Source: Cyanidioschyzon merolae (lineage: Eukaryota). From it: a stretch of 64,000 nt of DNA. Of the stretch, positions 7,974 to 63,273 are shown in pieces. Under the pieces are notes generated by a model. That model made no database searches. It was not told the DNA's origin and saw only the letters and a list, made by a program, of their open reading frames with translations. The translations under genes and the position numbers were made by a program. The stretch lies in NCBI GenBank assembly GCA_000091205.1, contig AP006485.2; one strand, given 5' to 3'. Numbering within the stretch: the stretch's first letter is position 1; each line of letters begins with the position of its first letter.

Positions 7974-8043
7974 TCACGCCCTTCTGTTACCGCACTATGC
8001 AGCCGTTTGAAGCAATATTGGCATAATAATACCTAAACCCTCA

Positions 8044-18027: not shown

Positions 18028-18081
18028 AACGAAAATGTTCTGACCATACAGTGCATAAATACATCCACTTCCAAACGCCTC

Positions 18082-19337: not shown

Positions 19338-19545
19338 GACCATCTGGTTTCTGTGGTGTGACTGACCTTAATGTGGAAACCAGTCTTTCTTGCATTATTA
19401 TGTAAAGAATCTATTCTACAGGCGATTAATCTAAGATCTATGAGGTACGTTCGATAGTGACTTCGATCTCCCGCTAAATACCGCAGTAATTTGGAAAAGA
19501 ATTGAGCTAGAAGAGTCGAATAATATTACAAAAGCGCGCCACTGG

Positions 19546-21886: not shown

Positions 21887-22489
21887 ACCGAAGTCAGCAC
21901 TAAATGGAAAAGATCTACGCAGACTGACACCGGCGTACATTCTCGTGTTTGGGTTGCTTCCCAATGAAGTCCAAACCAGCCTTTGAAGTATTTTTCTCTA
22001 CATCCGCTTCCTTCTTGCTCGATCCTGGTACCGACTTTAAATACGCTTGTTTCACATACAACTCCAGTTTTGATGGTAGCAGCCGAAAGATGTTGATGGC
22101 AGTGTTAGGGTCCCTGTTTCGGTGCCTCCGCCTGTAGTCCCAGCATTTGATGCTCATATGGCATTTGCCATCTGCGTTGAGCTCGCCAGTTTTATAATCG
22201 CTGTACATTGCCTCGTTGCGCTCTTCGTGGATGTGAAACTATTCTGCGGTTAGGTGTTCCTATGCGTCCACCACAGCTCGCAATCCGTGGGCGGCCCTGT
22301 GGCGCTTGAATGCTTGCGTCAGCGTATGGTCCACGTCGTTGATGGGTACAGAAGGCTCTCCTCGGTGCCGTCCGCCAATTCCGCGCCCGATACCGTACCC
22401 AGCAATCAGGAGCTTTTTCCGCACGACAACCTCAACGAGTGTTCTGTCCGGCGCACACGCAAGTTTATGGTCTTATTTTTCGTAAGGGC
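21887..22489 (-). mobile_element. Fanzor/TnpB-like 3'-terminal fragment (copy b). It is a 5'-truncated duplicate of the element at 26489-27600.
   Basis: ORF 21915-22208 (-) reads ...ELNADGKCHMSIKCWDYRRRHRNRDPNTAINIFRLLPSK, a CxxC zinc finger plus RuvC-III. Just upstream on the - strand, LIAGYGIGRGIGG sits at the RuvC-II position and is separated by a stop codon. Homology with copy c ends at 22489. Confidence 0.55.
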
Positions 22490-27600: not shown

Positions 27601-28054
27601 ACTGAATAATGAGGTTGCTTATGTTCTTTTACGAACCATTGCTCGAGTGCTCTGCGAATCATCTTGATTGCGGCAAGGTAAAGAATTCCAGCGGCAAATA
27701 GTTGATGGAGCCACTTCGGAAAGACGACAGAGAATTCTAGAGCTACTTATGAATCCGTGCATCCTTATGGCTGCACTTTGAATGTCACGGCTGTACATCT
27801 AACAGAGGTTTGGAAAGATATCGAGAGGAAAAAGCTCCATCTAGTTCAGTGCTCCATGTTGATCTGACATGGGCGTCGTCGTCGAATGAACTCGTATCAC
27901 CGCTGTGCGCGTATCGGGGCCCGTGACTACGCGAGCTCGGGTTCCGCGCCGGCGAAGTTCAGACCGCGAGCTCCGTATTGGTTAATCCATCTTCGAGAGC
28001 CGCGACAAAGAAAGCTTTTCCAGGATAACTTTTGAGGCCGAATCTCGTACAGAA

Positions 28055-30743: not shown

Positions 30744-32125
30744 TCAAGTGCTCTCTTGGAACAAAGTTGTTTCAGTAATAATCATAAGAGATTGAAATTT
30801 TGCGGCACTCCACATCATACGGCTCTGGACGAAAGCCGAGTGTTCCGTGCATTTTGTTTGCATAATCGCAGCATTCCGATGAATCTGAAGCGTGTGCCGA
30901 AAGCTCGCAAAAATGGGTCTTACAGTGATATGGGTCACAATTCGCGAATTCATCGCGACCATGGAGCCGGCCATTTCAGTGGGCGCCACGAATGAATACT
31001 TTGCAGCGTTGGACAGAATACGGAAGCAGTCTCGCTTGGACACGATGAAGCCGACCGAAGACCCTCCTGCGGGCGCTAGCAATGATGGCTACATTTTTTG
31101 GGAGGGAATCGACATACATTCTCAGTAACTTTGTAGAATGGAACAAAAACATCGTTCACCAATGGCCCGGAAATCCGTTGCCGTAGTGCGAATAAGCGCC
31201 CTAGCCACGCTGGATTGCTGTACTCCACCATACTAGTGCCTTGTTCTAGGCAAGTATCCGTCTCCTCTTTTTTAGGCACTGTTTTTTTCATCGTGAGTCT
31301 TCAACGTTTCAGAATAATGTCTAAACTGAGTACCAAACGATTCTCTCGATTGTTTGCGCAAAACGAAGCCGCCATATGCTCTGGAACCACGTAACATCTC
31401 TGCATGTTGATCGACGCGTTCCATTCTCGGTACAGCAAGTGCTTTTACGTATTTCTGTTGGTAGAATCTCACCAAAGCATGCTGTTTACCTTAGATTGCC
31501 TCGCCGTCTGAGGTTGGGCGAGATACGAACCACTTTCTTGCACATCCATTTCTGTTTCAAAATATTCTTCTCTGAAAGTTTCAGCGTGTACCCACGCTCG
31601 CGAAGCGTGCTTGTCGTCTTGAAAGTCTTGACGGGAATCGCACAGAATCAATTCCTGCTTGGGCTGTGTGGTCTCATAGAACGAAGTGATGTGCAGGCAC
31701 TGCGCGCTGCAGCAAGTCTAGTGCCATAGCCTACAGTCAATCAACGAGATTGATAAGCTATTTCTTTTCTAACAACTTTGAAGAACTTTTCGATTGCAAG
31801 CATCATGTCGCCGTACAAACGAAACCGTTGGTGACTGCAGCCTGCTCTCGTGTACTCCGCCATAGGATCGTCTGCATAAGCTATTTTCACACGCACGTAC
31901 TCTCTGAATGAAGCGTGCAGCACATCGCAGTCTCCTCGAATCGGAGCATAGAGCGTGCAGATGGGTCCTGAAACCGGAATTCCCCTCGGTGGTACGCTTC
32001 CTGTCGTCCGTCATGTCCGGCATACAATACTTCCGAGCCTCGCAAATCTTGATCAACTCCAGCTGCTTACCCTTCAGGTCTTTGGCTGCGTCCTCTTGCT
32101 TTGGACTTGCGGCGACCGCCATCAT
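30744..32125 (-). pseudogene. Unresolved locus: a chain of six - strand ORFs in alternating frames. It is either a multi-exon gene or a decayed gene.
   Basis: ORFs 31769-32125, 31741-31923, 31469-31651, 31272-31475, 31076-31291 and 30744-31082 follow one another on the - strand in shifting frames. No family was recognised. Confidence 0.2.
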
Positions 32126-32419
32126 GCGTTTCAGCTCGGACCGATGAACACCTTGGATTCCTTCTCTTCATCCGCCTTGAACGGTTAGAAATGTTTGTCG
32201 CTGCTCAACTGAGGCATACGTTTCATGAAATACATGTAGACTGATATACCATCGTGCTCACTTGTCCGTTTAGTCATCACTTCAGTTCCGCCGCGCGCAC
32301 GAGAATCCTTGAACCAGTGCCGCCAATGTTCACAGCGAAGTTGTATGCATACTGCATACCTGATCGCCGAGACCAGCAGTTGTTCAAAGAGCACGCGATG
32401 ATATACTATACGCAAGTGT

Positions 32420-33119
32420 CTACAGTGACATGTCGAAATGTACCATGGGAATTTGGACAGGTGGCAGCCCTGCGCCCGGCACTCCTACAAACAGTTGCTC
32501 GACGAATTGCTTCAAGTCGAGGAAAGCTACGCGAAACATCCCAAAGCGAAAGGCTACGCGATCCCGAATGACGTTCAGCATCTCACGGTACGGAAGTTTC
32601 TCCCTGCCAGTGTGTTTCAGTGCCCAAACGACGATAACATTTTGAGATGGAATTTTTTGCCAGAACAGTTTCTCGTTCGCCGCCCTTCTTGTCCTCTGTT
32701 CCGGCGGATTTGAACCTTCTTTGTCTTGTGGATTCTTCTCCTTCTCTGCTGCTTGGTGCAGTACCATGTCTACGTTCACTGGGCTCTGCGTGTGCTTTCT
32801 TCCGCGGCAGTGAGAAGGCTTTGGTGGACGGTGGTGCTCGAATACGCATTCTCGATGTATACATCTATTCTGCCTTACGTATCTTCTCGTCATATTCTCC
32901 GTGGTGAGCATGCCCACAGGCCGAGGCGAGCATTCCTTCACCTGTCCGGGCAAGAGCACAAAAGCTACAAAGCAGTTCAGGGCTGGTGAATGTAGAACAA
33001 GATTTGTGGAAAAATGACACGCTGGAGAACGGTGTCATGGATGTGAACGGATCCACGATCGATACGTGAGCGTAAAAATAGTTTTGACGACATAGAATAC
33101 TCCTTCTACTGGACTGCAC
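32420..33119 (-). other. Unresolved - strand coding region. A metallophosphoesterase is possible. It is either frameshifted or interrupted by introns.
   Basis: ORF 32865-33119 (-) ends ...ACGHAHHGEYDEK, a GHxH-like motif. ORF 32420-32959 (-) overlaps it in another frame. The assignment is weak. Confidence 0.15.
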
Positions 33120-34092
33120 AGCGGAGATTACAGTGGAATGAAAAGCAGGCCAACGTCAGAGTCAGCCCCGCAATACTTGACCGTCTTTGAGTGCTGGAAA
33201 GCGACTTTGCCGTTGGGCATGATAGAAGAATGTGCGACAGTGAAGCCACTCAGTAGCTCTACGATGGATGAGGCTTTGAACGATTCGGTCTTTTGGGCGA
33301 TTTGTGGTCGACTAGAGGATCGAATCGCAGCCAGGGCTGATGTTTTCGGAGTTCTCGTGCGTGCCTCCTGTGCGATTCGTATTGTCGACTCTTCGAATGC
33401 CCGTGTACAAGTCCACCATATCTCCCGAACAATGTTCATCAAGTGAGACGAACACAAGTCCGTCCAGCTATAAGCGTTCGCGTCCTATTGGGAAACCCGC
33501 AGTGTGTTGTCGAACGAACGATAGAGACCCATGGAAGCGTGCTCTTTTCTTTGTCCACCCAAGTCTCATCCCCTTCGGTTGTCTCAACAATACGGAAACT
33601 TCACATCCTGGGGATCCGTGGTTGGTACCCCCTGGAGAGCGTACGAAGTGGAATAGATTGACAAGGAGACAGCCCCGTACACGGAGCAGAATAAGTCCTT
33701 TTTCGCGTGCAGGACGCTCATGAAAAGGACGACAGGGAAGGTGGTTCATCCGCCTGCAGAACATAGAATGACAGACATGAACAAATAAGGTGTTTTGGCG
33801 AGCAATCTGCTATAGCGTACTATATTTCTGCGGCCTTTCTTCATCTTACAGAAAAAATTCTTCTCGTTCGATACCTGCGAAAGAAGCTAACCAAAAACAA
33901 AAAGTGTTTGCTCTTCCAAGTGTGCTGCAATTCACTGCTTTAACTGCGGCGCATATCGAGAATCGAGGTCCTATTTCATTGCATGGCATATGACTATATT
34001 TTACAGCACTGAATAGCGCTGTCGTAGATGATCATAAAGAAACGATAAACGTTTCAAGAGGATATAATGTATTCATATATCTATTCATAGGC

Positions 34093-35353
34093 GACTCCGA
34101 GCCTCGTTTGACGGCCCCCGGCTACCTGCTTGAGCTTTCCCTTGAGCAAATCGAGCGTGAGAGGCTGCCCTACAAAATTTGACCGCCCCAGCTCCTCGGG
34201 GCTCGTATTCTGCACCACACGTCGTCTGATATGGATGGACGCAATGAAGTCTCGGCTCTCGAACTCCACACGTTTATTGCCTCTGGTGGAACTCGCAATT
34301 GCAAGGATAGGTAGACCTCGTGCACTCTGTGCCACTGCGGCTTCGTCATGCTCTCATTGCGCGAACACATTTCCCCACCTATCTCCCCTTTTCTTACCCT
34401 TCTTCTTCGTCACTTGCTCTTCTTCGCTCGATTGCCGGCGAGAAGAGGATTTTTCGTCCATCCCCGACTACCGAAGATAACCGCATTCCGGGGCCCACGA
34501 GTTGCGTATCGATACCGTTCCCTTGGAATTTTCGTTTCTTCAACTGAAGACACTGGTCTATGCCGTTAGGTGAGGACCTTCCCGCACCGAGCAGCACATG
34601 CGGAAGAAAGACAAAATGCGCCCCGATGTGTCACCGTGCGCTGAATGCTTCAGCGATTCGCCCGGTGGAACGGTCATTAGGTTTCACGATAGAAAACATT
34701 CCGCCGATGCAGTTGGAACACGGAGCGCACGGAGGAATGAAAAGCAGCTTTGCCCCGAGAGAATCAGCAAAAGCTCGACCGCAAGGGTAATAATGAAATG
34801 TCACGCTGTCCAAGAGAAGAATATCGCCAGACGCCAGGGGAAAAGTCTTTTGTGATTTGACGAAGTGGTTGGTGCTGCTGTATGAGCCTTCTCTACGAGC
34901 GAAAACCGAGGCATCCAAATGAATCCACTCTAGCGAGAAGAGATTGGTCCGCGCTCTCTTCGGGTTCGATCGTGGATACATGGGGCTCCCTGCCCCGCGA
35001 ATACCCATGTACATTCCGACCGATTCTTCTGGAACAAGTCTCATTGGCTGGAAAAATGAACCGACGTCCCTAAGGATCATACCGATTGAGACGTTCTAGG
35101 AACACTGTAGATGCGATTTTGGTGCAAGATGGCCGTGACTGACGTTGGAACTTTTCTGCGATTGTACCCATCGTTTTCAGGATCAGACGAATTTGCTGTT
35201 AAGAAACAGAGATGCCCCAGGTGGCTTCGATTGAGGGTTTTACTTTCAGCAAAAGATGATCAATGATCCGTTTTCTACTATTTACAGAAACCAGTCCTTG
35301 AGAATAATAGTTTTTGAGCGCAGCTCGTATACTTGTTTCGTTCAGTGGCCCTC
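34093..35353. repeat. R2 repeat, copy 2 (1.26 kb). It is near-identical to 18082-19337.
   Basis: See copy 1. The identical ORF set lies at 34130-35080. Confidence 0.85.
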
Positions 35354-35739
35354 AGTTATCTGAGTACTGCGTTATGACTTTCCTGCAGGAGCCATGCAGT
35401 CCTCTATGCACTGTTCATAAAAAATATATGTGCAATAGGCAACTTGTGTACGATCTATGCGGTAAATTGCATAGTAGGTTCGATATCCTGCCATGCACAG
35501 CAGCGCAGGTGAAATATAATCGAGGTGAAAGACCATAACGATCTGGCGTCAAGGACGCGAATGCAGTAGCCCTCACGAACGCTTTAGATTTTCGCTGTGG
35601 ATTTCCAGTGCAAAGTCTGCTGCACATAGCCACCTAAACTTTCACCTGGAGGTGCGACCTTCTCTCGAGGAGCAGGCCTTTAGAGTGCATCCGCAAGCCA
35701 AGCGGGCACCATGGCCGAGTTTCGCTCTGTAGGCCATTC

Positions 35740-38132: not shown

Positions 38133-38845
38133 TCGTTGCATGTTGTTTCCTGGTTTTGTACGGCTTGCTGGAAAGCGTCTCGGGCCGCTTGTGTCCAGTT
38201 GTGATGATGTAAATAGAATCGAATTCATCACGTTCTATACCGAGGCCGCTGCAGAGCTCGTGAATAACTCTCAGACCGAAATGATGAGCAAATGTGAATG
38301 GAGCTTTGTGATGCCGCTAAAATATCTGCATTATAAGCTAGGAGCGGATGCTGAAGTGGCTATGTCCTTATCTTCTAAATGCATCGAACCTGGCGGGTAG
38401 CGCACCTCTGTAAGCTGATGTTCAACACTCGAGCGGTCCGGGTTCCGGCTCCAAAGAGACCCCTATTTGGGTCCAGTGATTGCGAAAAGTCTTTTTCGAA
38501 GCAGAGCATTTTCGTCAGCAGGAGTGAAGCTTGTTTTCCTGCTCTGAACAAACATGCTGCGCATCCAAACAACCATGATGAAGCGCACGTCGGTGAGTTC
38601 CTGGTCGATGAGGATGCCACGAACGAATATTTTTCAAAGTCTGTCTCGATATAACATTCTTTACAAGATCTGGCTGTACGCTCGCTCACGGAATGCGATG
38701 TTTCTCATTTGGTTCTCTTGGTTAAATTCACAATTCGAATCATACACTCATTTGAGAATAAATGTTAGAATGCCTCTTTGAAGGGATTACATTCTCAAGT
38801 TCGAGTCTGTTCCCAATGTCATCAGAATTAGCCTTTGCGGCCTTA

Positions 38846-39100
38846 TCTGCGACCGCTCCTATTATTCTTTGTTATCTTTGACTTGGAATACGACGGTCTC
38901 TCGTTTCCTCTTAGTCCCGCTGTCAGTGGTCGAAAGATGTTGATGGCAGCATTGAATTCCCGATTTCTGAGTTTCCAGCCGCTGGCGACGCATTTGATGC
39001 AAAAACAGTAGTTGCCATCGACGCACGGCTTGCCATTTTCATCTTTTTTGTATGCAGCCTCTTTGCGCCCTCTCGCAGCGGTGACACTTGGTTGTCCTCA
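38846..39100 (-). mobile_element. Fanzor/TnpB-like C-terminal remnant (copy d)
   Basis: Manual - strand translation gives ...KKDENGKPCVDGNYCFCIKCVASGWKLRNREFNAAINIFRPLTAGLRGNERPSYSKSKITKNNRSGRR*. This is a CxC…CxxC zinc finger plus RuvC-III. A stop codon lies immediately upstream. Confidence 0.5.
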
Positions 39101-39324
39101 GGTGTTCCTAAATATCACCCACAGCCTCTCATCCGTGGACCGCCTCGTGCTCCGTGAACGCTTGGTTTAGCGCTCGGCACATACACTTGACGGATACAGA
39201 TGGCTACTTTCGATATCCTCCACCGATTCCAGCTGCGGTGCTGTGCCCTACGATCACGTGCCTCTTACAGGTGATCTCCTCCATGAGTACCGATTCTGCT
39301 GGAGGCGCGAGTCCGCAGTTTTCC

Positions 39325-39440
39325 ATTCTATTGACAATTAGTGTAACGCTATGCTGTCCATGATGAATCGTGAATTGGAACCATCCTATTGACAAGTAGT
39401 GTAACGCGATGCTCTCTATGATGAATATTGATTTGGAAGG
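39325..39440. repeat. Two-unit tandem repeat of about 58 bp
   Basis: TTCTATTGACAATTAGTGTAACGCTATGCTGTCCATGATGAATCGTGAATTGGAACCATCC is followed by TATTGACAAGTAGTGTAACGCGATGCTCTCTATGATGAATATTGATTTGGAAGG. Confidence 0.7.
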
Positions 39441-40168
39441 TTAATTCTACTGATGCAGCATATGTCGACACATTTTAATGTGACCATGCCACTTTCGCGC
39501 AAGGCGATAAAGTGCACTCCAAACGAGAACATCTCTTTGGTGACTTAAGTCAGAGTCTATGATTCTTTTCAATGTAAACAGTACATGGAGGCCCCTGTGA
39601 GCATGTCCAGTGAGACGCATCATCTCGTTCTCGCATCTCTTTCCGCCGAGGACCACCAAGAGGGCAGGAAGTGTCTTCAGAACGGAATCGATGATTTGAG
39701 AAAGAAATATTCAGCGAAGTTGAGCTATAAGTCAATAAAGAAGTCGCCTCTGGGCTTCGCTGAATTTTCATGCTCGTTAACTCAGCAGCGCTAATTGCTC
39801 TGCTAGTGAGTTACCTTGAATCAGAAAGATCGAATACACAAAGAATGCAAGATTTGAGCATGCGACACGTTATTAACGGAGAATCTTGGAGGCTTCCATT
39901 CATGAACTTGATGATACTGTCGTTTATTCTACGAATTCTTGTTCGAGAACTTCCCGTATCATCTTGTTAACGTCAGAGGAACGAATTCCAGCGAAACAGC
40001 ATCTGAGGAGGCACACCGAAAAGGCGATCGAGAATCCTAAAGCTACGTATGAATCTTTAAACCCTTATTGCTGCCTTTCGAATGTCAAGATTATACGTCG
40101 AAATTTATTCTCAAAAACCCGAAAGCCAGGAACAGAACAAGCAGTTCAGTGTCCCATTTTTATCCACC

Positions 40169-44194: not shown

Positions 44195-45508
44195 ATCCAC
44201 AGCAAGAAGCTTGCGTTTCTCAGGATCTCATAGAAACGCCAGTCGTCTCGTATAAAATTGAGGTTCAACGACTTGCTAGCAAAATGGTAACCTGGGGTCC
44301 ACTCGCACGCTCCAACAACGAGTGATGCTCCGTTCACGGAGTCGCGCGACTTTCTCAAGCTTGACAAACGCAGCGATCGAAAACCTGGATTGGCTTTCCG
44401 CCAAAGGCTGTTTGCGGGTTGTTTCCAGTCTCGCTCCGTTCAAATACACTCCCATACAATGCACAGACAGGTACCTTACGTGCTCTCCGGCGCCGAGCGA
44501 GCACGAAGCGTAGTCCACTGTGCACGGTAAGATGTGCTCCGGACGATGGTCAGTTTATAACCTCGGATTCGGATCATCAGATACACACCATTTGGTGTCG
44601 ATCGTGCACCGTTACACTTATACGATTTGCCGTTCTGCCGTCAATCGACTACGACTGGTTCACACAGCAACGCATATCGCAGATGAGTGCCGCTATGGCA
44701 GTCTATATACTAGCCTCCAGCATCCGGTACACTATCGTGGAGAGTGAGTGCTCATTGAGAAACTCAGGTTCATAGGGAGAACGGCTGCTATAGAGATTGC
44801 GTAAACTTCTCCAAATCACCCGAGACATGCAGCTCTACATCAAGTGGCCCCATTAAATCGCATTCGCGTGACAGAGCTTGCAACGGAAAGACTGTCGAGC
44901 AGGCATATCGTTCGTGCGGGCTTCGGTGTGACGCAATGTGATGAGGCACTCGTTTATGAAAGGAGTGCAGGTTGTGCAAGCCCGAGCTACACATTCTTCA
45001 ACATGCGCCACGCATGTTGTGGGATCATCGAAGGTTCTTCGCTTTGGAAAGCTTTCGAACAAAGTAACTCTAGAGAGTAGAGAACGACGAGTGTTGATCC
45101 TCGCAAACGCCTCCGCAACACGATGGAACTGTTTTCATGAGTCAGCGTTCGCATGCTCTCAACATTGCAGGCATCTTCATGACAAGCTGTTACCATTGGA
45201 GGCGTCTTCGCCAATGTATATGATGCGGACATCAGATCCCATCTTAACACGACACTTGTATTGGTACTGCATGACAGTTCTGCTTTCGTGCAAAGACCGG
45301 AGCGGCACATCCGGCATTGCAGCAGGCATTAAGATTACGCTCTGCAACCAGGCGCGCTTTTAATCTATCCAGCGTCTAGCTCTCCGAGTGAAACTGCCTA
45401 GCGATTTCAGGTGCCCTGGTGCAATTTTGAAAAGGGCCTCATCGTATCGGAATAAAATGGATTTGGCCCTCTGACTCTCGCGTAGATACGGGAAGCAATA
45501 CCACCTCT

Positions 45509-46556
45509 TCCGGTCTCTTCCAGCTTCTCTTCATCATCCTCGTTCCTGCCCCCAAATCCGGCTTTCTATGAGCTGGGCTCTTGCGTCCCTCCGGCACCCT
45601 GGCAGCAGTCGAAGGATGCTCGTGGCTGCTTTAGCGTCGACCTTTAAACGGTTCGAATCGTGCTCGATGCATCCCATACACGGATGGCAGTCGGAAACGG
45701 CAACGCGCTCGCCGCTGCCTCTTCTCCGTCAACATCCCCGATGCGCTCTTCGCACCAGTGGCACATGGCTCAGGTCAGGTGTCCCTGTACGCCACCCGCT
45801 CCGAGCACATCATCCGCGGAGCGGCTGTGGCGCCTCCACGCTCACGCCAGTGTATCGTGCATGCCGTCGGCGGGCACGGAAGCCTCACCTCGATGCCGTC
45901 CGCGAGTGCTGCCCCCGCCGCGGTCCCCGACAATCACGAGCTTCTCCTGGGCCATCAGCTCGGCGAGTACGCTGTACACTGGGCGTGCAGGCACACGCTC
46001 TTCGATTCCTTCCGGGGGATCCGCGCAAGGCGGTGCTGCGCCTCACGAAACAAGCACCCGTGATGTGGCATCCGGGGCGGACGCCATGTCGGACTGTTTC
46101 GGTCTGTGTGCGCTCCCTTCGTGCCGAGCGGTAACGCATGCTCGGCTCGGAGCGAACGCTGCGATGACTAGAGTCGCAGCTGAGGGCGCATGCCGATGCA
46201 GACAGACGAGAGGGGAGCGCTGGAGCACGCGCACCCCGTGGGGCGCATCATTCTGGTGTGGAACGGTGCATCGCTGACGGCAGCGAAGAGCGGATGAGGG
46301 TTTGTCTCTAGAACGGAGTGGGTTATTCTTTGGCGTGACAAGATCAGTGGAATTTCGGCATAAGCTTGAGAGGATGCCGCCGAGCGATGACGTCGGGTAA
46401 TTATCGTTGAAGAGGCGATCGGGGATCCTTGAGCTGTGCATGAATGTGTAAGCTGTTGTTGGTGCTCGTTGCACGGCGGGGCTGTCCACGTAAAATACTC
46501 GGAAATCCTGGTAGAAAGGATGTGAGTGAACAGTTCAATGTTCAGTTTGGATCTGA
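45509..46556 (-). repeat. R1 repeat, copy 5, inverted. It carries a ~570-bp GC-rich insertion/replacement at 45656-46225.
   Basis: 45509-45655 and 46226-46556 are the reverse complement of the R1 consensus. Between them, 14 bp of R1 are replaced by 570 bp of ~68% GC sequence with no clean ORF. Confidence 0.8.
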
Positions 46557-47008
46557 TGAGGGGCTGGGGTCTCCCATCTGGCGTCCGGCAATATTTGCGC
46601 TTCTGGGAGCTTCAGGTTCCATGCAGTGCTCTCGCACCATCCATAAATCGGTGCATATGCGCTTGGCACGGCTCTGCAGCGTGCCTGCAGGCGCAAGCGA
46701 CCGCGATACTGCATGACTCTAGACGCCCTCAGCTGGTACGAGAAAACATATTGGAAATTTTTAACTGTGGAAGCATGAAATTCCTCCCGGAGAGCATACA
46801 CGAGGATTGGATATCACAGCGTGAATTTTCGCCCTGATACCGGCTATTGCAGCAAGATGTATTCGATCATCAACACAATGCATCAGTGACGATAATGCGC
46901 CTTCACTTAGACGATGCACCCAATGTTTCTCACCAGCTCCGCTAGACGATAAGAAGACGCTTCGAATGCAACGATCCAAGCCAGCGTGCTATAGCTCGAA
47001 TAATCGAC

Positions 47009-56353: not shown

Positions 56354-56956
56354 TCAGCATTTGTGCGTTGCAGTGACCGCCACGCCGTCGTCATCTACGG
56401 CATTCGTCCGTGCACTCACATAAATCCCATCCAAAAACTTACGAATATCTTTGTTTTTCACAAGGCATGTTTCGTGGATGAGAGCAGCAGACTGTGAAAC
56501 TTCGTTGATATCGTTTCCAACGACGAGCAAGCAATCCTTCACAGTGTTCGAACGGTAGACCTTCGCGCCACCGAGCATTCGCACTCGACGGACTCGCTTC
56601 TCTCCCAGAAAGTTGCGCACTTCTAGAACTGTATCGTTCTCGGATATCGTCATGTTCAGCGGGAAGTGCGCGTATACGGCTCTAAGCTCGTAACAGTAAC
56701 CCTTGATGACGCCGGTAAACATGTTCTTAAAAACGGAGGCCGCCGTCATAATAGTTGCCAGATCCTTTCGGCGTCCTTGCCACACCTGGATGCGCACTTT
56801 GCGCCCCTTTTCCAAAAGCGTAAAGTCAGCAGGTATATGTTTAAGGCTCTTCCGGAGTTCGCCCCGGGGCCCTTTAACGAAAACCTCCCGCTTCTTAACG
56901 CGTACCGTCACGCCTTCAGGCACCTTCAAGGTTTCGCTCGCAAGGATGGCCCTCAT
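56354..56956 (-). CDS. RPL9: 60S ribosomal protein L9 (uL6)
   Basis: MRAILASETLKVPEGVTVRVKKREVFVKGPRGELRKSLKHIPADF...IQVWQGRRKDLA... matches eukaryotic RPL9 over its full length of 200 aa. It reads as a single exon. Confidence 0.9.
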   Translation of the reverse strand: MRAILASETLKVPEGVTVRVKKREVFVKGPRGELRKSLKHIPADFTLLEKGRKVRIQVWQGRRKDLATIMTAASVFKNMFTGVIKGYCYELRAVYAHFPLNMTISENDTVLEVRNFLGEKRVRRVRMLGGAKVYRSNTVKDCLLVVGNDINEVSQSAALIHETCLVKNKDIRKFLDGIYVSARTNAVDDDGVAVTATHKC

Positions 56957-57639
56957 TTTTCGTTGTAAATCTTGATAATGCCGCGAATCGCCAAATAACT
57001 TTCACAGGAACCACCCTATGAACCACCCGAGCAGTGGAGAAGCTGACTTGCGAAAAAACGGGGTACGCGACGGATGTACAGCCGAGAGTCGTGGCTGCTT
57101 CGCAGGACGGCGAAAATCCGGACGTGGCTAAACGGGACAAAAATACCCTCAGCTGCGCTGCCTGTACGATAATGTATAAAAAGGACAAAACACCCACGGG
57201 TGCGCTGCCGATTTTGATGCTGAACATGGTAACCAATATCCTACGACCATGAAGTTTAAATTATTACCACATGCAGAGGTCTGCCAGCCTTTTCAACCGG
57301 ACCCCTGCCGCCGGTTTCAGCCTTACCTCGTATACTTCGATCCTGAGAGGTTCCCCACAAAGCTGGCTCGCGCCAGCTCCACGAGTGTCATATAAAGCAA
57401 CGCATATCGTCTGATATTGATGGCGGCGTCAAAGTACCGGCTCATGGACCCCATGCGTTTGTTGCGTCTGATGGGACTCGGCTCTACAAAGATTCCTTGA
57501 ATTCGTGCCGTCTTTGCCATCTGGTGCTCTGTCAGCTCTCCGTACTCATATATCACGGAAGCGCTCCGCTGCGTTTTGTCCGTCTGGACCTTCTGAAGTG
57601 TGCGCCCTAGGATATCCCTCGGATTTTTTAAAGTGAATG

Positions 57640-58250
57640 CACTTCTTTATAGCCTCAGGTGAGGACCTTCGCAGGGGAGAAGGACTTGCTGAAGAACGAC
57701 GAAATGTGCCCCAGTGTGTCACCGTGTGCTGAGCGCTTCAGCGAATCGCCCAGAGCAGCGATCCTTACGTTTCATGATAGAAAACATCCGTTCGATGGAA
57801 ATGAACCATGGAGTGTACGCAGGAATGAAAAGCAGCTCTACCCCGGTGGAATCAGCACAATGCTCGAAAGCAAGGGGAATGTTCAAGTGCTATGTAGTGC
57901 AACAGAACGAAGTCGCCAGACGTCAGGAGCAACATCTTCAGTGATTCTACAAAAAGGTGCTGTTGTATTAGGCTTCAATGCGGGCGAACCCGAGGCCGCT
58001 ACATGAATCCACTGCAGGTAGAACAGATGATGTCGTCTTTCTTTTCCAAATCGATCGCACGTACAATGGGCTCTCTACCCGGCGAGTGGCCATGTACGCT
58101 CCGACCGTTTCGTCCAAAGCAAGTCTCATCGACTGAGAAATCAAACGGATATCCCTGTGCTTCTTACCGATTGCAACGTTCCATGAACGCTGTACGTGCG
58201 TTTCGGTTCATGATGGCCGTGTGTGAACTAGGGCTCTGTTTTTTGTGACT
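57640..58250. repeat. R2-related repeat, a diverged third copy
   Basis: It aligns to 18541-19100 and 34557-35116, sharing ggtgaggacctt…gtgtcaccgtg.gctga..gcttcagcga.tcgccc…atgatagaaaacat…ggaatgaaaagcagct…catgaatccact…. Identity is roughly 70%. Confidence 0.6.
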
Positions 58251-58789
58251 GTATCCGGGTATTTGCAGGACCACACAGACAAGGTGTTGAGCAACAGAGA
58301 CGCCCGTGATGGCTGCGATCCTCGCTTTTGCCTTCCGTGAGATGCTCAACGTGTCGTTTTCAACCATTGAATGCAAGCAGTTTTGAGGATTCGGTTTTTG
58401 GCTTGGATCGCATTTACTTTTCTGTGTTCCTCTCGCATCTGAGTACTGGGATATGACAGACCTGAAGGGGGAATGGAGTCCACCTTGCACTGTTCAGTGA
58501 AGAATATACATCCTGCAAGCAACTCATCTGTGCTCAATACGATAAATTGCATCCTGATTTCGATCTTCTGCTTTAAGCTACAAAAACAGCATTCGAATGC
58601 TTTCAGCGGTGGTCAAACAAAATTGAGTTGAAAGACTATAAAATGGAACAGTGAACATTTTATGCTGTTCCTGCTCTACAATCCTTTCCGAAATTTTTTC
58701 AGGTCGACGAACTCGACCTTCGAAGTGCGACAACAAAGAGTTACGAATCCACACCTAATTTAACGATTCTCGATTGTCTCTTCAGCGTG

Positions 58790-59893
58790 ACTCCTTTGAT
58801 GTTTTTCAGTTGGAATTCGCCAGGTCACCGGAATGAAATTGAGTTGCCACGCAATCGAGCAAGAATTCATAAAAAGCAGAAGTCATTACAAAATCTATGC
58901 AAACAATTCTCCACTCCGCTCCTTTTTTTCATTCCGGACGCTCGAATCATGCCCAGTTCCGATCTTTCTGTTTCAAGGCAATTTGCTGGTGCAGCAAGAA
59001 TTGCAGCTGGATTGACATTGAAAACAAACTTCGATGTCATCCCTTCAAGACTTTTTCACAACCTCAAGCCGAAAGCTCACTGAACTTAGTACGCAAAATA
59101 ATCGATGCCGTTCGAGAGCCAAGTCGCACTCTTTTCATCGAAATCGGCGAAACGGCGTTCTACAGCAGCTAGATACCTCTCACAGGACTTGCTCACACAG
59201 GCTCCTGTCTCTTCTGTTTTCTTAGAGAAGCATCATGGCCTCGGGCTTTAGCTATTACCGCAATCGTCTCGAGGAAACACTGCCTCATCGTTTTCCAACA
59301 ACGGAGCGCCGACAGTTTGAAACTTCTCGACTTGTTCTTGACCTGAATAATCGTACGGGTACTTGTTTCATCATGGATAATATCGCGTTCCACAAATCCT
59401 GTATTGAACAGAACAGCGTGCGCCTGCTTGTACAGCGGACACAGTACTTGCCAAGGGGATCGCCAGGAGGATGCCCATGCTCTTATGGGACGGCTCCGAG
59501 CGCGGAAACGGAAGCGAGCATCGAGAGCTCTCTTCCGTCTCCGTCGAGGGCACGAACCGAATTCTGGAGCAAGCTGTCACGCGCCATAGTGCAGTTATCC
59601 AGGGAAAGGTTGGGTATTCTGTGGGAATATCTGACTACAGCAAACAGTCACCGCCGCGAAACGCCCACCTAGGCTTCACAAAAAATGCGAATGCCAAGCG
59701 AGGCGTAGATTGCAAATGCCACGTGTGTATCACATGCTCCGATAGCAGCAAGAAACCGAGAGATAGGGATTTTAATGGTGCCATCAACATCTTTCGACTA
59801 CAGACAACGGAGCTGGAGGGAAGCGAGACACGAGCATATTTCATGCTGGAGATGAGTGGCACGAAAAACGGAAAAAATCGAAGAACACATTAG
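58790..59893 (+). mobile_element. Fanzor/TnpB-like nuclease, C-terminal half (copy e). It is frameshifted and probably a pseudogene.
   Basis: ORF 59471-59893 reads ...AVIQGKVGYSVGISDYSKQSPPRNAHLGF...KRGVDCKCHVCITCSDSSKKPRDRDFNGAINIFRLQT. This gives a RuvC-II-like stretch, a CxC…CxxC zinc finger and a canonical RDxNGAINI RuvC-III. The overlapping ORF 59235-59672, in another frame, has ...RLVLDLNNRTGTC..., a possible RuvC-I. Confidence 0.55.
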
Positions 59894-61047
59894 CAGAAAT
59901 GCTACTAATGATGACAATTGGAAAGCCCAAAACTTTAATGCATACACTCGCGATAGACAAGTGGACTCGTTCCATTTTATTCAGGCATGAGTATATGCGC
60001 CATATCCTGCGGCCGTGCGTTTTGCTTAGAAAGACTGCGGGCGATTAAATTATTATTAAAGGTCATCCTTCAACAAAAGAGAACTGGATGAGCAACCTGC
60101 CTCGTCACTTGGGCCTCTCTGCTCGCTTAGTCGCCTCTTCAAATGGAGCGCGTCACCAGAACATATTATGGTCGAAGATCGCGGTGCTTGCCGACGTCCA
60201 GTCGGAGCGTGTACATTTGTACGAGAGGCTCAGCATGTGCCTTTTGGGGCCCTTGCGCTTTCGGCGCAGGATATTTGCAGAGCAGCGCCATTCTGAAGCA
60301 GCCCTGACGTACTTCGGAGCGCGAGCCCAGCGATGAACGCCCCCAAGCGAGGCATCTGATAACTGTCGTATATATATTCAACATGCCACGAAACAATGAA
60401 TAGATGATGGACGTCTCCGAGCGATACATCTCACAATTGCCGCATGTAAGTTTGAGCTGCGAATGAGGTTCGCCGGCGAGCGCAAGCGGCGCTCGTCCAC
60501 GAGAACGTCCCCGTCCGTAGCGGAAGAAGCAGCGCGCCTCTTTCTGAGCTGGTCGGACGCATACAGCTTCAATACACCGGCAGGTTGCATCGCAAAAGCG
60601 GCCCTCTTCCCGCTCGAGTACTGCTGAGGCGCCTGAAACGCCCGAGAAACCGGATGCTCGATGTTCCGCGTCGCAGGAAAATGTGTCGTTCTTTAGATTG
60701 AGCCGCTATTCCTAATCAGGATGCAGGATCGGGTCTCGTGGAACGTGACGACCTCTATAAAGGAGCAGAGGTATCTTACTTGCTTATTGTCTCCGTTTAT
60801 GCATCCAGAGTAAGCGCTTTTCAGAGTCGATGGCTCGTGGTAGATCCGGCAAATTCGCTGTCGGCACTTGACACGGCGTTTCTGAACTACGGCAGACAGT
60901 GGCAGGTCAGATGTTGTTTGGATTCGGATTGACCAGTCTGATCGAAACTAGGGCATACGAGCGCTAACGTACTGGATCCTCTCACTTTGGATAGCGTCTA
61001 GTTTATGCTGAGATCCACCAGTGGGTTGAAAGACTAGAGAGCACGTC

Positions 61048-63273
61048 ATGGATGCTGAACAACGTTCAGGCGTCGGCGACAGTTCTCCGCACGCGGCTAC
61101 GTACCGTTTGTCCCGAACGCTTGCCGGGCATGCGGCTGACGTTCGAGCCGTTGCTGCCATGTCGCGAGAACTATTGATAACAGGTTCACGGGACGGCTGC
61201 GTGCGACTTTGGCGCGGTAACGAACTGAACAGCTATGGTATTCGGGTACACGCTCCCCATTATGTTCAGGCGCTCGCGGTTTTGAGCAACGAAATGATAG
61301 TAAGCGGTTCCTCGGACAAAACTGTTGCCTGGATTGACGTCAATACAGAGCAGATGACGCATTTAGGCAAAGGGCACGGAGACGTCGTGAGCGCGCTGGC
61401 GGTAGCCCCAACGTCGACACTGGTGGCCTCTGGCTCCTGGGACCGAACGGTGCGCCTGTGGCGGGACGGCGAGAGTCTCATGAGCCTCACTGGACACGAC
61501 GCAGCGGTTTGGGCTCTTTTATTTCTAAGCGATACCGAAGTCCTCAGCGCTTCGGCGGACTGCAGCATTCGTCTCTGGGATGTTCGCAAAGGAGAGTGCG
61601 CCCAGGTGCTGTACGGCCACGACGAAGCCGTACGGGCCCTCTGCCGACTCGAGTTGAGCGCGCATTCTAGAGGCAGTTTCGCATCTGCTGGGAACGATGG
61701 CTCAGTTATTCTTTGGTCCATGCATGGTGAGCAAATTCGTCGCTATCCGAATGTACATGGCAGCTTCATTTATGCCCTTGCTGCTTTTCAAGATATGCTC
61801 ATCTCGGCTAGCGAAGATCGAACCGTGCGCATCCTGGACCTCCAGCAGCAGGATGTCGTTCAAACGATACCACATCCCAATACCGTCTGGAGTGTTACCA
61901 TGATTCCTAATGCTGACGGCGATTTTCTAACCGGCTGTGCTGACAGTTGTGCGCGCGTTTGGACCCGCATTCCGGAGAGGTCCGCGCCGGCAGAGCACGT
62001 TGCGGAATACGAGATGGCGCTGGCAGCGCAAAAAACGAGCATGCACCATCAGCATCAGATAGATCCTTCCCAAGTGCCTGATGCAGAAACGGCGCTAGCG
62101 CAGCCGGGCTTTCGGGACGGACAAACGCGGCTCGTGCGCAAGTCCGGAACCCTGGACGGCATCGAAGTATACATGTGGTCGATGTCAGCAGGTCGCTGGA
62201 TGAAGATAGGTGACGTGACGGATCCTCCTGGATCGCCCGAGCGGCCTCTCAAGACAGGTTTTGACTACGTCTTCGATGTTGATGTTGATGTCGACGGCAG
62301 TGCGCATCGATATCGTCAGCTAGGGTATCGACGTGGAGAGAATCCGTACGTCGCTGCCGAGCGTTTTCTGGAAGAAGAACATTTGCCGCGTACATATCTG
62401 GAACAGATTGTACAGTTTCTTATCACGCATGTTCCCGCCAGCGACATGCGTGCCGATGCGGGCGCGCTGACGGATCCGCTCACCGGCGCTGATCGCTATG
62501 TGCCACCCGCTGCGTCTTCTCTACCGCAAGGTCATTCGGCGGGGAATCTGCCGGACTGGATACTGTTTCCTGGGACGGATTCGTATGAACGCATCTTGGA
62601 ACATTTGCCGGAAAACGATCGGTGTCGGTCGTTATTCCAGACTTTGAAACCGCTTACAGCAGAGAAGGTGCGCATGCTCAGTGCGCTCCTCGAGCGGACA
62701 CCGCCCGCGCAGGCGGTAGCTGTTATAGATCTGGCGAGACTCGTCGTCCTAGAAAATGATGCGATACAGATACTTTTTGGAAATGGTCAGCCGACAGTAC
62801 TCGACAGTGTCCTACGTCATGCATCCAGTGCAGAAGCTTCTTTTGGAATACACGTTTCTTCCTGTCGCTTCATATGCAACAGTTTCGTCCATTGGCAGCG
62901 AGCCCCGGTGCGTGAGGCCTTGCTACGATGTGCGGATCTTATTTTAGATACGTTTACGATCATCGTGCATAGCGATACACCTGAGAAGCTCTGGCGGGCT
63001 TTCGCCGCAGTGTTGTATAATTACGCCGTTCTTGAGAGTCGATGTGATGCAGGGCGTCAATCTGTCCGGTCGTGCGCCGATCGAGTGCTGCAGAGTGCCT
63101 GTCTGCTCGGTTTTGCACGACCAGCTGGTGTCCAGGAGGCGTCTGAACTCACCGACGCCCTCTGGATGCTCATTCACGACGCTTCGCGGGCGCAGCTTGC
63201 GATATCCGCAGGTCTGTTGGAGTGGGAAGAGGTACCCTCTAAAATCGCAGAGCGTATCCGCATGTTTGTCTAG
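61048..63273 (+). CDS. Phospholipase A2-activating protein / Doa1-Ufd3 family (WD40 + PFU + PUL)
   Basis: Seven WD40 repeats lie at the N-terminus (…GSRDGCVRLW…, …GSWDRTVRLW…, …ASADCSIRLWD…). The PFU domain follows (...YMWSMSAGRWMKIGDVTDPPG...FDYVFDVDVDVDGSAHRYRQLGYRRGENPYVAAERFLEEEHLP). The C-terminal region is a helical PUL domain. The protein is 741 aa. Confidence 0.8.
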   Translation: MDAEQRSGVGDSSPHAATYRLSRTLAGHAADVRAVAAMSRELLITGSRDGCVRLWRGNELNSYGIRVHAPHYVQALAVLSNEMIVSGSSDKTVAWIDVNTEQMTHLGKGHGDVVSALAVAPTSTLVASGSWDRTVRLWRDGESLMSLTGHDAAVWALLFLSDTEVLSASADCSIRLWDVRKGECAQVLYGHDEAVRALCRLELSAHSRGSFASAGNDGSVILWSMHGEQIRRYPNVHGSFIYALAAFQDMLISASEDRTVRILDLQQQDVVQTIPHPNTVWSVTMIPNADGDFLTGCADSCARVWTRIPERSAPAEHVAEYEMALAAQKTSMHHQHQIDPSQVPDAETALAQPGFRDGQTRLVRKSGTLDGIEVYMWSMSAGRWMKIGDVTDPPGSPERPLKTGFDYVFDVDVDVDGSAHRYRQLGYRRGENPYVAAERFLEEEHLPRTYLEQIVQFLITHVPASDMRADAGALTDPLTGADRYVPPAASSLPQGHSAGNLPDWILFPGTDSYERILEHLPENDRCRSLFQTLKPLTAEKVRMLSALLERTPPAQAVAVIDLARLVVLENDAIQILFGNGQPTVLDSVLRHASSAEASFGIHVSSCRFICNSFVHWQRAPVREALLRCADLILDTFTIIVHSDTPEKLWRAFAAVLYNYAVLESRCDAGRQSVRSCADRVLQSACLLGFARPAGVQEASELTDALWMLIHDASRAQLAISAGLLEWEEVPSKIAERIRMFV

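Follow-up and report, generated by a model that had tools for sequence, protein, structure and literature searches.

Element A1 of Cyanidioschyzon merolae, a probable internal-deletion relic of a composite DDE_3 transposase–Fanzor1 transposon

Composite transposons that pair a Mariner transposase with a Fanzor1 protein have known precedents (PMC3627910; PMC10530073). In PUl-1 from Pythium ultimum and PGv-1 from Phaeocystis globosa virus, an inverted repeat, the transposase, Fanzor1, and a second inverted repeat follow one another on one strand (PMC3627910). The red alga Cyanidioschyzon merolae, whose 16.5-Mb genome is regarded as nearly devoid of mobile DNA and was reported to lack MITEs (PMC3964958), harbors the Fanzor1 family CMe-1A, described in 2013 with approximately 150 copies, a 3169-bp consensus, and the 734-aa protein CMe-1, and reported as unclassified and without inverted repeats (PMC3627910). 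Here, we describe element A1, a transposon copy in a 64-kb stretch of C. merolae DNA (hereafter, the window), which resembles PUl-1 and PGv-1 in the order of its parts and their placement on one strand (Table 1). Four proteins encoded in the window match proteins of C. merolae 10D exactly. A1 is very probably an old, inert, non-autonomous DNA transposon copy, derived by internal deletion from a composite in which terminal inverted repeats (TIRs) enclosed a DDE_3 transposase and a Fanzor1 nuclease, copied by a transposase supplied in trans, and then subject to neutral decay. It is an inert relic and ordinary genomic debris of an already known type; unlike PUl-1 and PGv-1, it retains no more than ~70% of the transposase and ~22% of the Fanzor, joined out of frame. 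A preliminary description, made from the letters alone, placed the locus at 58790-59893, and the element reaches beyond this interval at both ends.

Table 1 Positions of element A1, its parts, and related segments in the 64-kb window
Feature	Position	Strand	Remarks
Element A1	58631-59986 (1.36 kb)	+	Terminal inverted repeats; outer coordinates approximate
5' terminal inverted repeat of A1	58631-58656; core AAAATGGAACAGTGAAC at 58640-58656	+	Outermost few bases uncertain
Putative DDE_3 transposase remnant, decayed	58703-59393	+	Residues ~1-225 of ~310
ORF containing VLDLNNRTG	59235-59672	+	
VLDLNNRTG	59334-59360	+	Just before the second DDE motif of the transposase remnant
Internal-deletion junction, transposase remnant / Fanzor remnant	59394-59410	+	Reading frame shifts -1
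Fanzor1 C-terminal remnant	59411-59890	+	Corresponds to the C-terminal ~150 aa of a 682-aa relative
140-aa ORF	59471-59893	+	Used in the preliminary description; reads ...GVDCKCHVCITCSDSSKKPRDRDFNGAINIFRLQTTELEGSETRAYF...
GxG stretch MLLWDGSERGNG	59477-59512	+	Fanzor1 remnant of A1
RuvC-II region GILWEYLTT	59613-59639; Glu at 59625-59627	+	Frame shifted
First zinc knuckle	59646-59657	+	Mutated to SHRR; other frame
Second zinc knuckle CITC	59726-59737	+	Aligns with the second CxxC of relatives
RuvC-III RDRDFNGAINIFRL	59759-59800; Asp at 59768-59770	+	Fanzor1 remnant of A1
Tail GSETRAYF	59819-59842	+	Fanzor1 remnant of A1
3' subterminal non-coding region of A1	59894-59968	+	Homologous in family A copies, 587-bp repeats, L006, and L007
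3' terminal inverted repeat of A1	59969-59986; GTTCCATTTTA at 59969-59979	+	Outer end approximate
Family A copy A2	38745-40168	-	Architecture as A1; tblastn E 4e-12 and 8e-9
Family A copy A3	26486-27868	-	P0058 residues 523-679, E 5e-14
Partial duplicate of A3, 99.8% identical	21891-22489 (599 bp)	-	Deletion junction to 3' terminus
R5, long copy (1.06 kb) of the 587-bp repeat family	45500-46560	-	P0047 residues 579-685, E 8.6e-5
CMe-1A-family matches	13226-15408; tails 18072-18304, 34096-34320, 57269-57610		blastn/tblastn with the published consensus and protein
Further match of the CMe-1A consensus/protein	31570-31911		blastn/tblastn

The right-hand part of A1 derives from a Fanzor1 (eukaryotic TnpB-like) nuclease, judging from its similarity to intact relatives outside the window. 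These relatives were reached by an exhaustive HMMER search seeded with P0043; family A profiles run in a word-indexed protein search yielded nothing beyond near-identical or sister fragments (tails, P0041-P0043; transposase part, P0044-P0045). The intact relatives are encoded on metagenomic contigs, two of which have virus-like neighbors, are 680-800 aa long, and carry DPGR..., GYGxG, WEHxTTxKCxxC, CxxC, and NRDFNAAINI. P0058 and P0065 pass the gathering score of PF07282, which is also matched by P0043 (E 0.0012) and copy A2 (E 0.068), and P0047, P0058, and P0060 match the Fanzor1 references CMe-1, CRe-1, and VCa-1 (E 1e-9 to 1e-3). Against ACa-1, the sole Fanzor2 reference used, the relatives gave no match at E<=0.01.

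A1 matches residues ~527-745 of intact relatives that are 680-760 aa long. In tblastn of the intact relatives against the whole window, P0047 residues 546-745 matched 59381-59842 at E 4e-8 and P0058 matched A1 at E 5.5e-8, and blastp of the A1 Fanzor part to P0047 gave E 4e-9. Frameshift-tolerant alignment to P0058, performed with strict penalties and a shuffle control, scored 130 with two frameshifts, compared with 35 ± 5.5 for shuffled DNA. An HMM of the Fanzor1 C-terminus, built without any C. merolae sequence, ranked the A1 ORF first of 1620 six-frame segments (E 0.0017). The C-terminal motifs seen in the preliminary description are thus real and belong to a Fanzor-type relic; moreover, the copies of family A (A1, A2, and A3) align to each other at the nucleotide level outside the motifs, a comparison that had been set beforehand as the refutation test. 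A Pfam scan of the 140-aa ORF alone gave no match at E<=1, as would be expected if non-coding DNA resembled a Fanzor by chance, through short strings rich in Cys or similar to RDxN. Such a coincidence is exceedingly improbable in view of the E-value of 4e-8 over approximately 150-200 aligned residues, a z of approximately 17 against shuffles, and the collinear homologous copies.

The Fanzor frame of A1 is recognizable from EQRAPACTADTVLA (59411-59452), which matches QKALAKAADDVVM of P0058. YLPRGSP (~59440) was considered as a transposase LPPYSP motif with the junction after it and was rejected as an out-of-frame reading of Fanzor DNA; the Fanzor frame at this site reads QRAPACTADTVLA, again matching QKALAKAADDVVM of P0058. 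We applied the published Fanzor1 motif, D-X(125,275)-[TS][TS]-X-X-C4 zinc finger-X(5,50)-RD (PMC3627910). A1 retains the conserved Glu that immediately precedes the zinc finger (WEHxTT/VDEFRTS), as well as the [TS][TS] pair, although its GILWEYLTT can be aligned with VDVWEYNTT of P0058 only if a shift from the surrounding Fanzor frame is allowed. The RuvC-III RD motif (xRDxNAAxNI) is present as RDRDFNGAINI (59759-59791), aligning to RNRDFNAAINI of P0043, P0047, and P0058. The C4 zinc finger (CxxC ... CxxC) is incomplete, with the second knuckle only. An RDxNGAINI motif and a four-cysteine zinc ribbon, both regarded as the best preserved among the copies, had been attributed to this copy: the RDxN motif stands, whereas the ribbon reduces to the last two Cys of CKCHVCITC, with SHRR at the first knuckle, and it is copy A2 (~39100) that keeps both knuckles. 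The RuvC-I aspartate, found in GLDPGRVNLY in the relatives, has no match anywhere in A1; the DPGR of the relatives lies at residues ~436-447, and the Fanzor homology of A1 begins only at ~527-546. An intact nuclease ORF (~600-800 aa) is absent from A1, in which ~150 codons with two internal frameshifts are left. The 140-aa ORF is open by chance, since the ancestral Fanzor path needs two frameshifts inside it; between ~59600 and ~59690 the ORF is out of the ancestral frame.

The left-hand part of A1 is probably a decayed DDE_3 transposase of the Tc1/mariner/IS630 type. The putative DDE_3 identity in family A is based on the order of motifs together with pairwise similarity to a single DDE_3 gene. 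In Pfam, DDE_3 was the sole match to the transposase part, below threshold (E 0.07-0.12). Blastp to the DDE_3 protein of the metagenomic contig L008 gave E 1.7e-6 for A1, E 5.9e-5 for A3, and E 6.3e-5 for P0045, and the frameshift-tolerant score of the A1 part was 74 versus a null of 42 ± 4.8. An HMM built from two Mariner transposases, those of PUl-1 and PUl-2, gave no meaningful match in the window. The transposase N-terminus MYSDDFKTAV...STVSRWLKAP matches copy A3 at 27798-27676, and the N-terminal HTH stretch matches at E 0.001, with the remnant FFSWNSP at 58802-58822 in A1. The start codon is lost in A1. The first catalytic motif reads IEIGETAF (59137-59160), with Asp changed to Gly; A3, which has the best-preserved transposase part (MYSRDIQ..., AVIDETAF, FIKDDTAFH), retains this Asp. 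The second motif, FIMDNIAFH (59367-59393), retains its Asp in A1, and the third catalytic residue is gone through deletion, leaving the DDE triad incomplete.

VLDLNNRTG, previously assigned to RuvC-I, is located within this transposase remnant and aligns to residues ~200-216 of the L008 transposase. In the DNA alignment of the copies, A3 reads KLPDLIFEFDDFPSGTRFIKDD at this site, the ancestral frame of A1 reads SLKLLDLFLT-stop and then shifts, and "VLDL" is an out-of-frame reading of an ancestral K-L-L-D-L-F. Given this reading, DDE_3 as the sole Pfam match, and the similarity (E 1.7e-6) to an L008 DDE_3 gene that adjoins the Fanzor gene of an intact relative, VLDLNNRTG is not RuvC-I, and the assignment was a false positive from a neighboring transposase fossil. 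The same evidence bears on whether A1 is a degraded but otherwise complete Fanzor gene, with VLDLNNRTG as its RuvC-I and an N-terminal half scrambled by local rearrangement. Although RuvC-II, one zinc knuckle, and RuvC-III occur in the correct order and VLDLNNRTG lies ~140 codons upstream of RDxN, within the published motif spacing (PMC3627910), we consider this very unlikely: the stretch is part of the DDE_3 remnant with "VLDL" out of the ancestral frame, RuvC-I of the relatives is situated ~130-150 residues upstream of the start of A1 homology and finds no match in A1, and the 1.36 kb between the inverted repeats are too short for a Fanzor gene.

TIRs are present in A1; the 5' core AAAATGGAACAGTGAAC (58640) is found again, as its reverse complement, at the 3' end as GTTCCATTTTA (59969). 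The alignability of the three family A copies begins exactly at the 5' TIR, and the terminal core also occurs in A2, A3, and the 587-bp repeats, at the 3' end of the better-preserved L004 and L007, and within the 34-nt inverted repeats of L008. The termini of the window copies were defined by aligning copy ends; a generic inverted-repeat finder did not reveal them in these decayed copies. The exact 3' end of family A was set in A3 by its 99.8% identical duplicate, as the common sequence stops at ...CCATTTAGTGCTGACTT. A TA target-site duplication is a possible reading in A1 (TA/AAATGG...CCATTT/TA), the other family A copies being too decayed to be read, and the 587-bp copies have TA or CA flanking one or both sides. 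Neither tandem repeats nor telomere repeats were found.

Between the termini, the transposase frame stops after FIMDNIAFH, and the Fanzor frame then starts at a -1 offset. The same junction and the same offset are found in A1, A2, A3, and the independent metagenomic copy L006, from which the master copy appears to have been a non-coding deletion derivative already. An in-frame transposase–Fanzor fusion protein was also considered and is ruled out by the -1 offset in all four copies and by many stops. Of the N-terminal half of the Fanzor, described earlier as missing or scrambled, only the former is correct: one clean internal deletion is common to all copies. L008, a virus-like metagenomic contig, may represent the intact parent-type architecture. 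The last 8 bp of its DDE_3 gene (4076-5008) are also the first of the Fanzor gene P0060 (5001-7061), and both genes are enclosed by a 34-nt inverted repeat (4013-4046 / 7125-7158), the longest in the region.

The observed architecture, homology, common junction, termini, and decay of family A suggest the following origin, with the parent architecture modeled on the metagenomic relatives. The ancestor would have comprised an inverted repeat, a DDE_3 transposase, a Fanzor1 nuclease, and an inverted repeat. One internal deletion would have removed ~85 C-terminal transposase residues, including the third catalytic residue, together with the first ~530 Fanzor residues (the REC/WED-type N-terminal part and RuvC-I), and the two remnants would have become joined out of frame. 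Because the deleted element could encode nothing, its copying presumably relied on a trans-acting transposase able to recognize its termini, and the copies would afterwards have decayed neutrally. Global alignment of the copies now gives ~56-59% identity, and local blastn segments reach 65-72%. The 3' end (51-53%) is as poorly conserved as the transposase and Fanzor parts. A full-length parent of the family A lineage was not found in C. merolae. An origin by nested insertion, in which Tc1/mariner and Fanzor elements inserted into each other, both became truncated, and the resulting mosaic was amplified, would fit the fact that transposon relics do adjoin here (A1 and B1, head to head) and that Fanzor elements are often chimeric according to Bao and Jurka (PMC3627910). 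It is nonetheless quite unlikely, since the orientation and order of the remnants are as in the intact L008 composite, a single junction suffices for the structure, the enclosing inverted repeats match each other, and no internal terminus of a second element is present at the junction. As an internal-deletion derivative, A1 is predicted to have no nuclease, transposase, or guide-RNA activity today, because its transposase has neither a start codon nor the first catalytic Asp, both remnants are broken by stops and frameshifts, and RuvC-I is absent.

The window had been described as holding five relics of one family and as a sink for it. Recurrence is confirmed and a sink is plausible, whereas a single family is not what we found: approximately ten Fanzor-derived segments fall into at least two families without DNA-level alignment to each other, namely family A and the published CMe-1A family with its short derivatives. 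A2 keeps both zinc knuckles (CHRC ... CIKC) and NREFNAAINIF...GNERPSY, and contains a 58-bp tandem duplication at 39323-39438. R5 has both termini in common with family A and retains a Fanzor segment (…VIVGDRGGGSTRGRHRGEASVP…CHWCEE). The 587-bp repeats, which are 97-98% identical to each other and end as family A does, are a shorter and younger derivative; their ORFs were not found in cluster look-ups. A1 and a CMe-1A-type relic, B1, lie head to head at ~58630-58640. The CMe-1-type Fanzor copies in the window are also located directly behind DDE_3 remnants, which suggests a Tc1/mariner-type carrier for the CMe-1 family, left unclassified in 2013.

The 3' module, from the junction to the 3' terminus, is retained in all non-autonomous derivatives: the A copies, R5, the 587-bp repeats, and the solo 599-bp fragment near 22 kb (21891-22489). 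The guide RNA of a Fanzor (fRNA) overlaps both the inverted repeat and the ORF 3' end (PMC10530073), and the module might accordingly be kept as a functional RNA, an fRNA scaffold by which non-autonomous copies exploit a Fanzor in trans. Over the last ~55 nt, the repeat family and L007 share ~70% identity, whereas the L007 Fanzor, P0049, has only 53% protein identity to P0043, the closest better-preserved relative of family A; such identity between very distant relatives could reflect a functional role. On the other hand, RNAalifold on the terminal 90 nt gave no conserved fold (-0.29 kcal/mol) and no covariation, Rfam yielded one sub-threshold chance match only, and the 3' end is no better conserved among the A copies than the rest. 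Protein searches found no intact Fanzor of the family A lineage for C. merolae, and transposase binding sites explain conservation of transposon ends equally well. Retention as a functional RNA is unlikely on this evidence. The broader proposal that the module acts in cis, as an fRNA scaffold or as a site recognized by the nuclease or transposase, letting derivatives hitch-hike on a Fanzor and a transposase acting in trans, is likewise improbable; if true, the system could have been active recently in C. merolae, given the 97-98% identity among the 587-bp repeats.

For annotation, the 140-aa and 145-aa ORFs at this locus are not genes. The position of intact relatives beside virus-like genes fits the view that Fanzor transposons are carried from one eukaryote to another by large DNA viruses. 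Nothing here alters knowledge of how Fanzors work. C. merolae carries at least a second Fanzor1 lineage beside CMe-1A, with recognizable TIRs and a DDE_3 partner. Among Fanzor1a-d, this lineage is expected to belong to 1c, the clade for which an association with Mariner/Tc1 has been reported.

CMe-1A and family A occur in the same genome, belong to the same protein superfamily, and are similarly old, with CMe-1A copies at ~80% identity to the family consensus. Neither the CMe-1A consensus (blastn) nor CMe-1 (tblastn, E<=0.01) matched A1 (58631-59986), A2, or A3. Identity between CMe-1 and the intact family-A-type relatives is only 22-25%, and CMe-1 lacks the CxxC...CxxC finger that these relatives possess. 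Family A is a second Fanzor1 lineage of C. merolae, distinct from CMe-1A and not described for the alga in PMC3627910. The zinc-ribbon and RuvC-III region is homologous to that of TnpB/Cas12f-type RuvC nucleases (PF07282, Cas12f1-like TNB domain). Unlike prokaryotic TnpB, family A is eukaryotic/viral Fanzor1-like and has no IS200/605 or IS607 TnpA, and its catalytic Glu precedes the zinc finger, at the WEHxTT position, which is the Fanzor1 arrangement. With Mariner/Tc1-Fanzor1 composites, the type represented by the intact relatives shares a full length of ~3.1-3.6 kb, viral association, and non-autonomous derivatives; A1 differs from these composites in being an internal-deletion derivative and in being missed by the PUl-1/PUl-2 transposase profile. 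Like MITE-like or internally deleted Tc1/mariner elements, A1 retains its termini, has no coding capacity, and presumably depended on a transposase in trans, whereas, unlike them, it carries the fossil of a passenger nuclease besides its transposase remnants.

The Fanzor-like copy is a real Fanzor1 relic within an internally deleted element of the DDE_3 (Tc1/mariner) type (A1). The C-terminal string quoted in the preliminary description is present in ORF 59471–59893 (+), which reads ...GVDCKCHVCITCSDSSKKPRDRDFNGAINIFRLQTTELEGSETRAYF.... With an HMM of the Fanzor1 C-terminus trained on nine published sequences, C. merolae excluded, this ORF ranked first among 1620 six-frame segments (E 0.0017), followed by a known copy of the C. 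merolae protein CMe-1 and the other tails of the same repeat group (family A). A profile of three family A tails found P0043, a better-preserved 165-aa metagenome fragment that reads ...WEHLTTKKCHRC...RVCEHC...RNRDFNGAINIL...GEERPTY, and an exhaustive HMMER search with P0043 gave 65 relatives, including full-length proteins of 680–800 aa. The full-length relatives carry GLDPGRVNLY (RuvC-I), then GYGTGKGNGGGHKGEPAVPVK, as well as WEHLTTKKCxxC, a second CxxC and RNRDFNAAINI...G.ERPEY. Two of the relatives, P0058 and P0065, score above the Pfam gathering threshold of PF07282 (Cas12f1-like TNB, former OrfB zinc ribbon). P0047, P0058 and P0060 matched the Fanzor1 references CMe-1, CRe-1, and VCa-1, and showed no match at E ≤ 0.01 to ACa-1, the one Fanzor2 reference used.

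Searched against the window, intact relatives matched A1 at 59381–59842 (E 4e-8 and 5.5e-8), A2 (4e-12), A3 (5e-14), the A3 duplicate, and 45683–45949. Frameshift-tolerant alignment of A1 with P0058 scored 130 (shuffled DNA, 35 ± 5.5), and two frameshifts were needed for the ancestral Fanzor path inside the 140-aa ORF. The RuvC-II region GILWEYLTT (59613–59639) follows the other ORF's frame, and the first zinc knuckle now reads SHRR. Because only CITC (59726–59737) aligns with the second knuckle of the relatives, two cysteines of the supposed four-cysteine ribbon are not zinc ligands there, and that ribbon is not retained. The canonical RuvC-III motif stands (RDRDFNGAINI), as does the tail GSETRAYF, matching G.ERPEY.

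The only Pfam family matched by the ORFs of the left half was DDE_3, weakly (profile positions 78–117 in A1, E 0.12; positions 4–96 in A3, E 0.06). The decisive evidence for its transposase identity is the genomic context on L008, a 46.5-kb metagenomic contig in which a 310-aa DDE_3 gene lies before the Fanzor gene P0060 in the same orientation and overlaps it by 8 bp. This transposase matched the left halves of A1 (E 1.7e-6), A3 (5.9e-5), and a further copy, P0045 (6.3e-5), and its N-terminus, MYSDDFKTAV...STVSRWLKAP, aligns with A3 27798–27676. VLDLNNRTG, previously taken for RuvC-I, is present in ORF 59235–59672 (+) at 59334–59360 and lies in the DDE_3 remnant, between the catalytic aspartate motifs IEIGETAF (59137–59160) and FIMDNIAFH (59367–59393) in the alignment with the L008 transposase. 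At the DNA level, A3 KLPDLIFEFDDFPSGTRFIKDD aligns to the A1 two-frame reading SLKLLDLFLT* then NNRTGTCFIMDN; 'VLDL' is therefore read out of frame, and the RuvC-I assignment was rejected. The RuvC-I and zinc-ribbon details had thus been misread.

Features in the window (approximate positions marked ~)
Feature	Position	Strand	Remark
A1	~58631–59986	+	family A, self-comparison
A2	~38745–40168	-	family A, self-comparison
A3	~26486–27868	-	family A, self-comparison
A3 partial duplicate	21891–22489		family A type; 99.8% identity to 26488–27086, 599 bp
R5, 1.06-kb version of 587-bp repeat	45500–46560	-	family A type; still contains Fanzor segment
587-bp repeat, four copies	1561–2147, 5003–5589, 8030–8626, 11362–11954	all +	97–98% identical
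Nearly full-length CMe-1A copy	13226–15408	+	CMe-1 type; 76% DNA identity; with transposase, 12254–15408
CMe-1A 3' tails	18072–18304, 34096–34320, 57269–57610		CMe-1 type
Short 1.4-kb CMe-1A-type elements	18072–19520, 34092–35540, 57269–58630 (B1)	all -	contain the 3' tails
Diverged composite	~31300–33300	-	CMe-1 type; CMe-1A-matching relic at 31570–31911
RPL9 gene	56354–56956	-	flanks spacer holding A1
Phospholipase-A2-activating-protein gene	61048–63273	+	flanks spacer holding A1

Family A was defined by self-comparison of the window. Its three copies are collinear across the entire 1.36 kb, and blastn aligned them significantly in stretches beyond the motifs (A1 58712–58819 with A2 40089–39982; A1 59040–59169 with A3 27449–27318; A3 27624–27787 with A2 39924–40087). 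Their global identity of 56–59%, even over all parts, points to old copies. A2 contains a 58-bp tandem duplication (39323–39438, 86% identical) doubling the second DDE motif region (FIIESIALH/FIMDSIALH).

The transposase frame of A1 is unrecognisable just past FIMDNIAFH, and from ~59411 a Fanzor frame, one base out of phase, reads EQRAPACTADTVLA, matching P0058 QKALAKAADDVVM at about residue 527. Breakpoint and −1 offset are identical in A2, A3, and an independent copy on the C. merolae-like metagenomic contig L006, and R5 retains a transposase motif trace, GACFVRRSTALR. The junction is therefore older than the amplification of family A, and it at no time coded for a fusion protein. The simplest history would be one internal deletion in a composite transposase–Fanzor transposon, removing transposase residues ~226–310 and Fanzor residues ~1–526. 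The A3 duplicate starts at most ~3 codons from this junction, and its other end is precisely the 3' terminus of the element; one boundary of a recent duplication thus coincides with an ancient junction.

Bao and Jurka (2013), who named the Fanzor proteins, listed one C. merolae Fanzor1 family, CMe-1A (PMC3627910). Its ~150 copies are ~80% identical to their 3169-bp consensus and its protein has 734 aa; the authors found neither inverted repeats nor target duplications and gave the classification as unknown. Fanzor relics in this genome are thus already known. A search of the window with the published CMe-1A consensus and CMe-1 protein found one nearly full-length copy, three short 3' tails and a distant relic, and missed A1, which is therefore not CMe-1A. 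A decayed DDE_3 transposase lies directly before the nearly full-length copy on the same strand and takes the place of ~870 bp at the start of the published consensus. The three 1.4-kb elements comprise a remnant of that transposase and, of CMe-1A, only the last 230–350 bp. A family that was left unclassified on publication may therefore have had a Tc1/mariner-type carrier. In the diverged composite, a DDE_3 C-terminus (...LLFIPL*SPLCSPVEGVF motif, 33080–33223) is followed downstream by a CMe-1-like Fanzor with 29% identity to CMe-1 residues 508–621.

Family A copies are alignable from AAAATGGAACAGTGAAC (58640), with the reverse complement GTTCCATTTTA at 59969. This terminal core also occurs ~40 nt past the stop codon of P0043 (contig L004), ~50 nt past that of the Fanzor P0049 (contig L007), and in the L008 repeat, towards its inner side. 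The exact 3' end of A3 is fixed where its duplicate stops (...CCATTTAGTGCTGACTT). A putative TA duplication is readable at A1; the other family A copies gave no reliable reading. Next to the 3' terminus, a block of ~55 nt is ~70% identical between C. merolae repeats (R1, a 587-bp copy, 2097–2149; A1, 59930–59986) and L007 (~6640–6700). The L007 Fanzor P0049, by comparison, shares just 53% identity with P0043, which is the nearest to family A among the better-preserved relatives. The 5' end mirrors only ~17 nt of this block, which showed no conserved fold and could represent transposase binding sites or a Fanzor guide RNA end.

Both termini are common to family A and the 587-bp repeat (5' ...CAAACTGAACACTGAAC, 3' ...GAGTGGACGTGTTCCATTTTAG). 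The repeat appears to be a young, MITE-like element derived from this transposon lineage. Its four short copies are spaced ~3.0–3.4 kb apart, three of them 0–250 bp upstream of a + strand ORF. The abstract of the P-MITE database paper reports no MITEs for C. merolae (PMC3964958).

Four long window ORFs exactly match the proteins BAM79061, 79062, 79069, and 79070 of strain 10D, encoded on a chromosome of 481,791 bp, and A1 occupies a 4.1-kb spacer between RPL9 and the phospholipase-A2-activating-protein gene. A1 and B1 abut head to head at 58620–58645, their 5' ends at most a few bases apart (…GAAAGAC TATA AAATGG…), consistent with insertion beside or within a TA site on the margin of an older element. 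In A1 the transposase start codon and the first catalytic Asp are gone, and neither the third catalytic residue nor RuvC-I is present; both remnants contain stops and frameshifts, and conservation is low and uniform across parts. Searches of A1 detected neither an RNA family nor a conserved fold, and no tandem repeats. From these sequence features we conclude that A1 is probably a fossilised, inert non-autonomous element, whose inverted repeats presumably once served its mobilisation in trans.

The preliminary description counted five relics of one family. Several relics do exist, and the window holds about ten Fanzor-derived segments of at least two lineages; the copies are alignable at the DNA level outside the motifs within family A, but not between family A and CMe-1A. 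Including the 587-bp repeats, all elements cover about one quarter of the 64 kb (summed lengths, approximate boundaries), and the region is therefore transposon-rich. It may be a sink for such elements, as the preliminary description proposed.

An apparently intact composite transposon lies at 4013–7158 of L008 (ENA metagenome contig ctg27810_9x_l), its Fanzor1-like protein having 686 aa. A 34-nt inverted repeat (76% complementary, 4013–4046/7125–7158), the longest of that region, flanks precisely these two genes, DDE_3 and Fanzor, giving a 3.1-kb element. Genes for a D5-type primase-helicase, PriCT_2, and Endonuclease VII surround it, which makes a large DNA virus the probable context; virus-like neighbours also occur on L007 (RNA ligase, Peptidase_S74). 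With the A1 lineage, C. merolae has a second Fanzor lineage, which is of a known kind. The L008 element resembles PUl-1 and other Mariner–Fanzor1 composites in plan and size (Bao and Jurka, PMC3627910) and agrees with the association with Mariner/Tc1 that Jiang et al. 2023 reported (PMC10530073).
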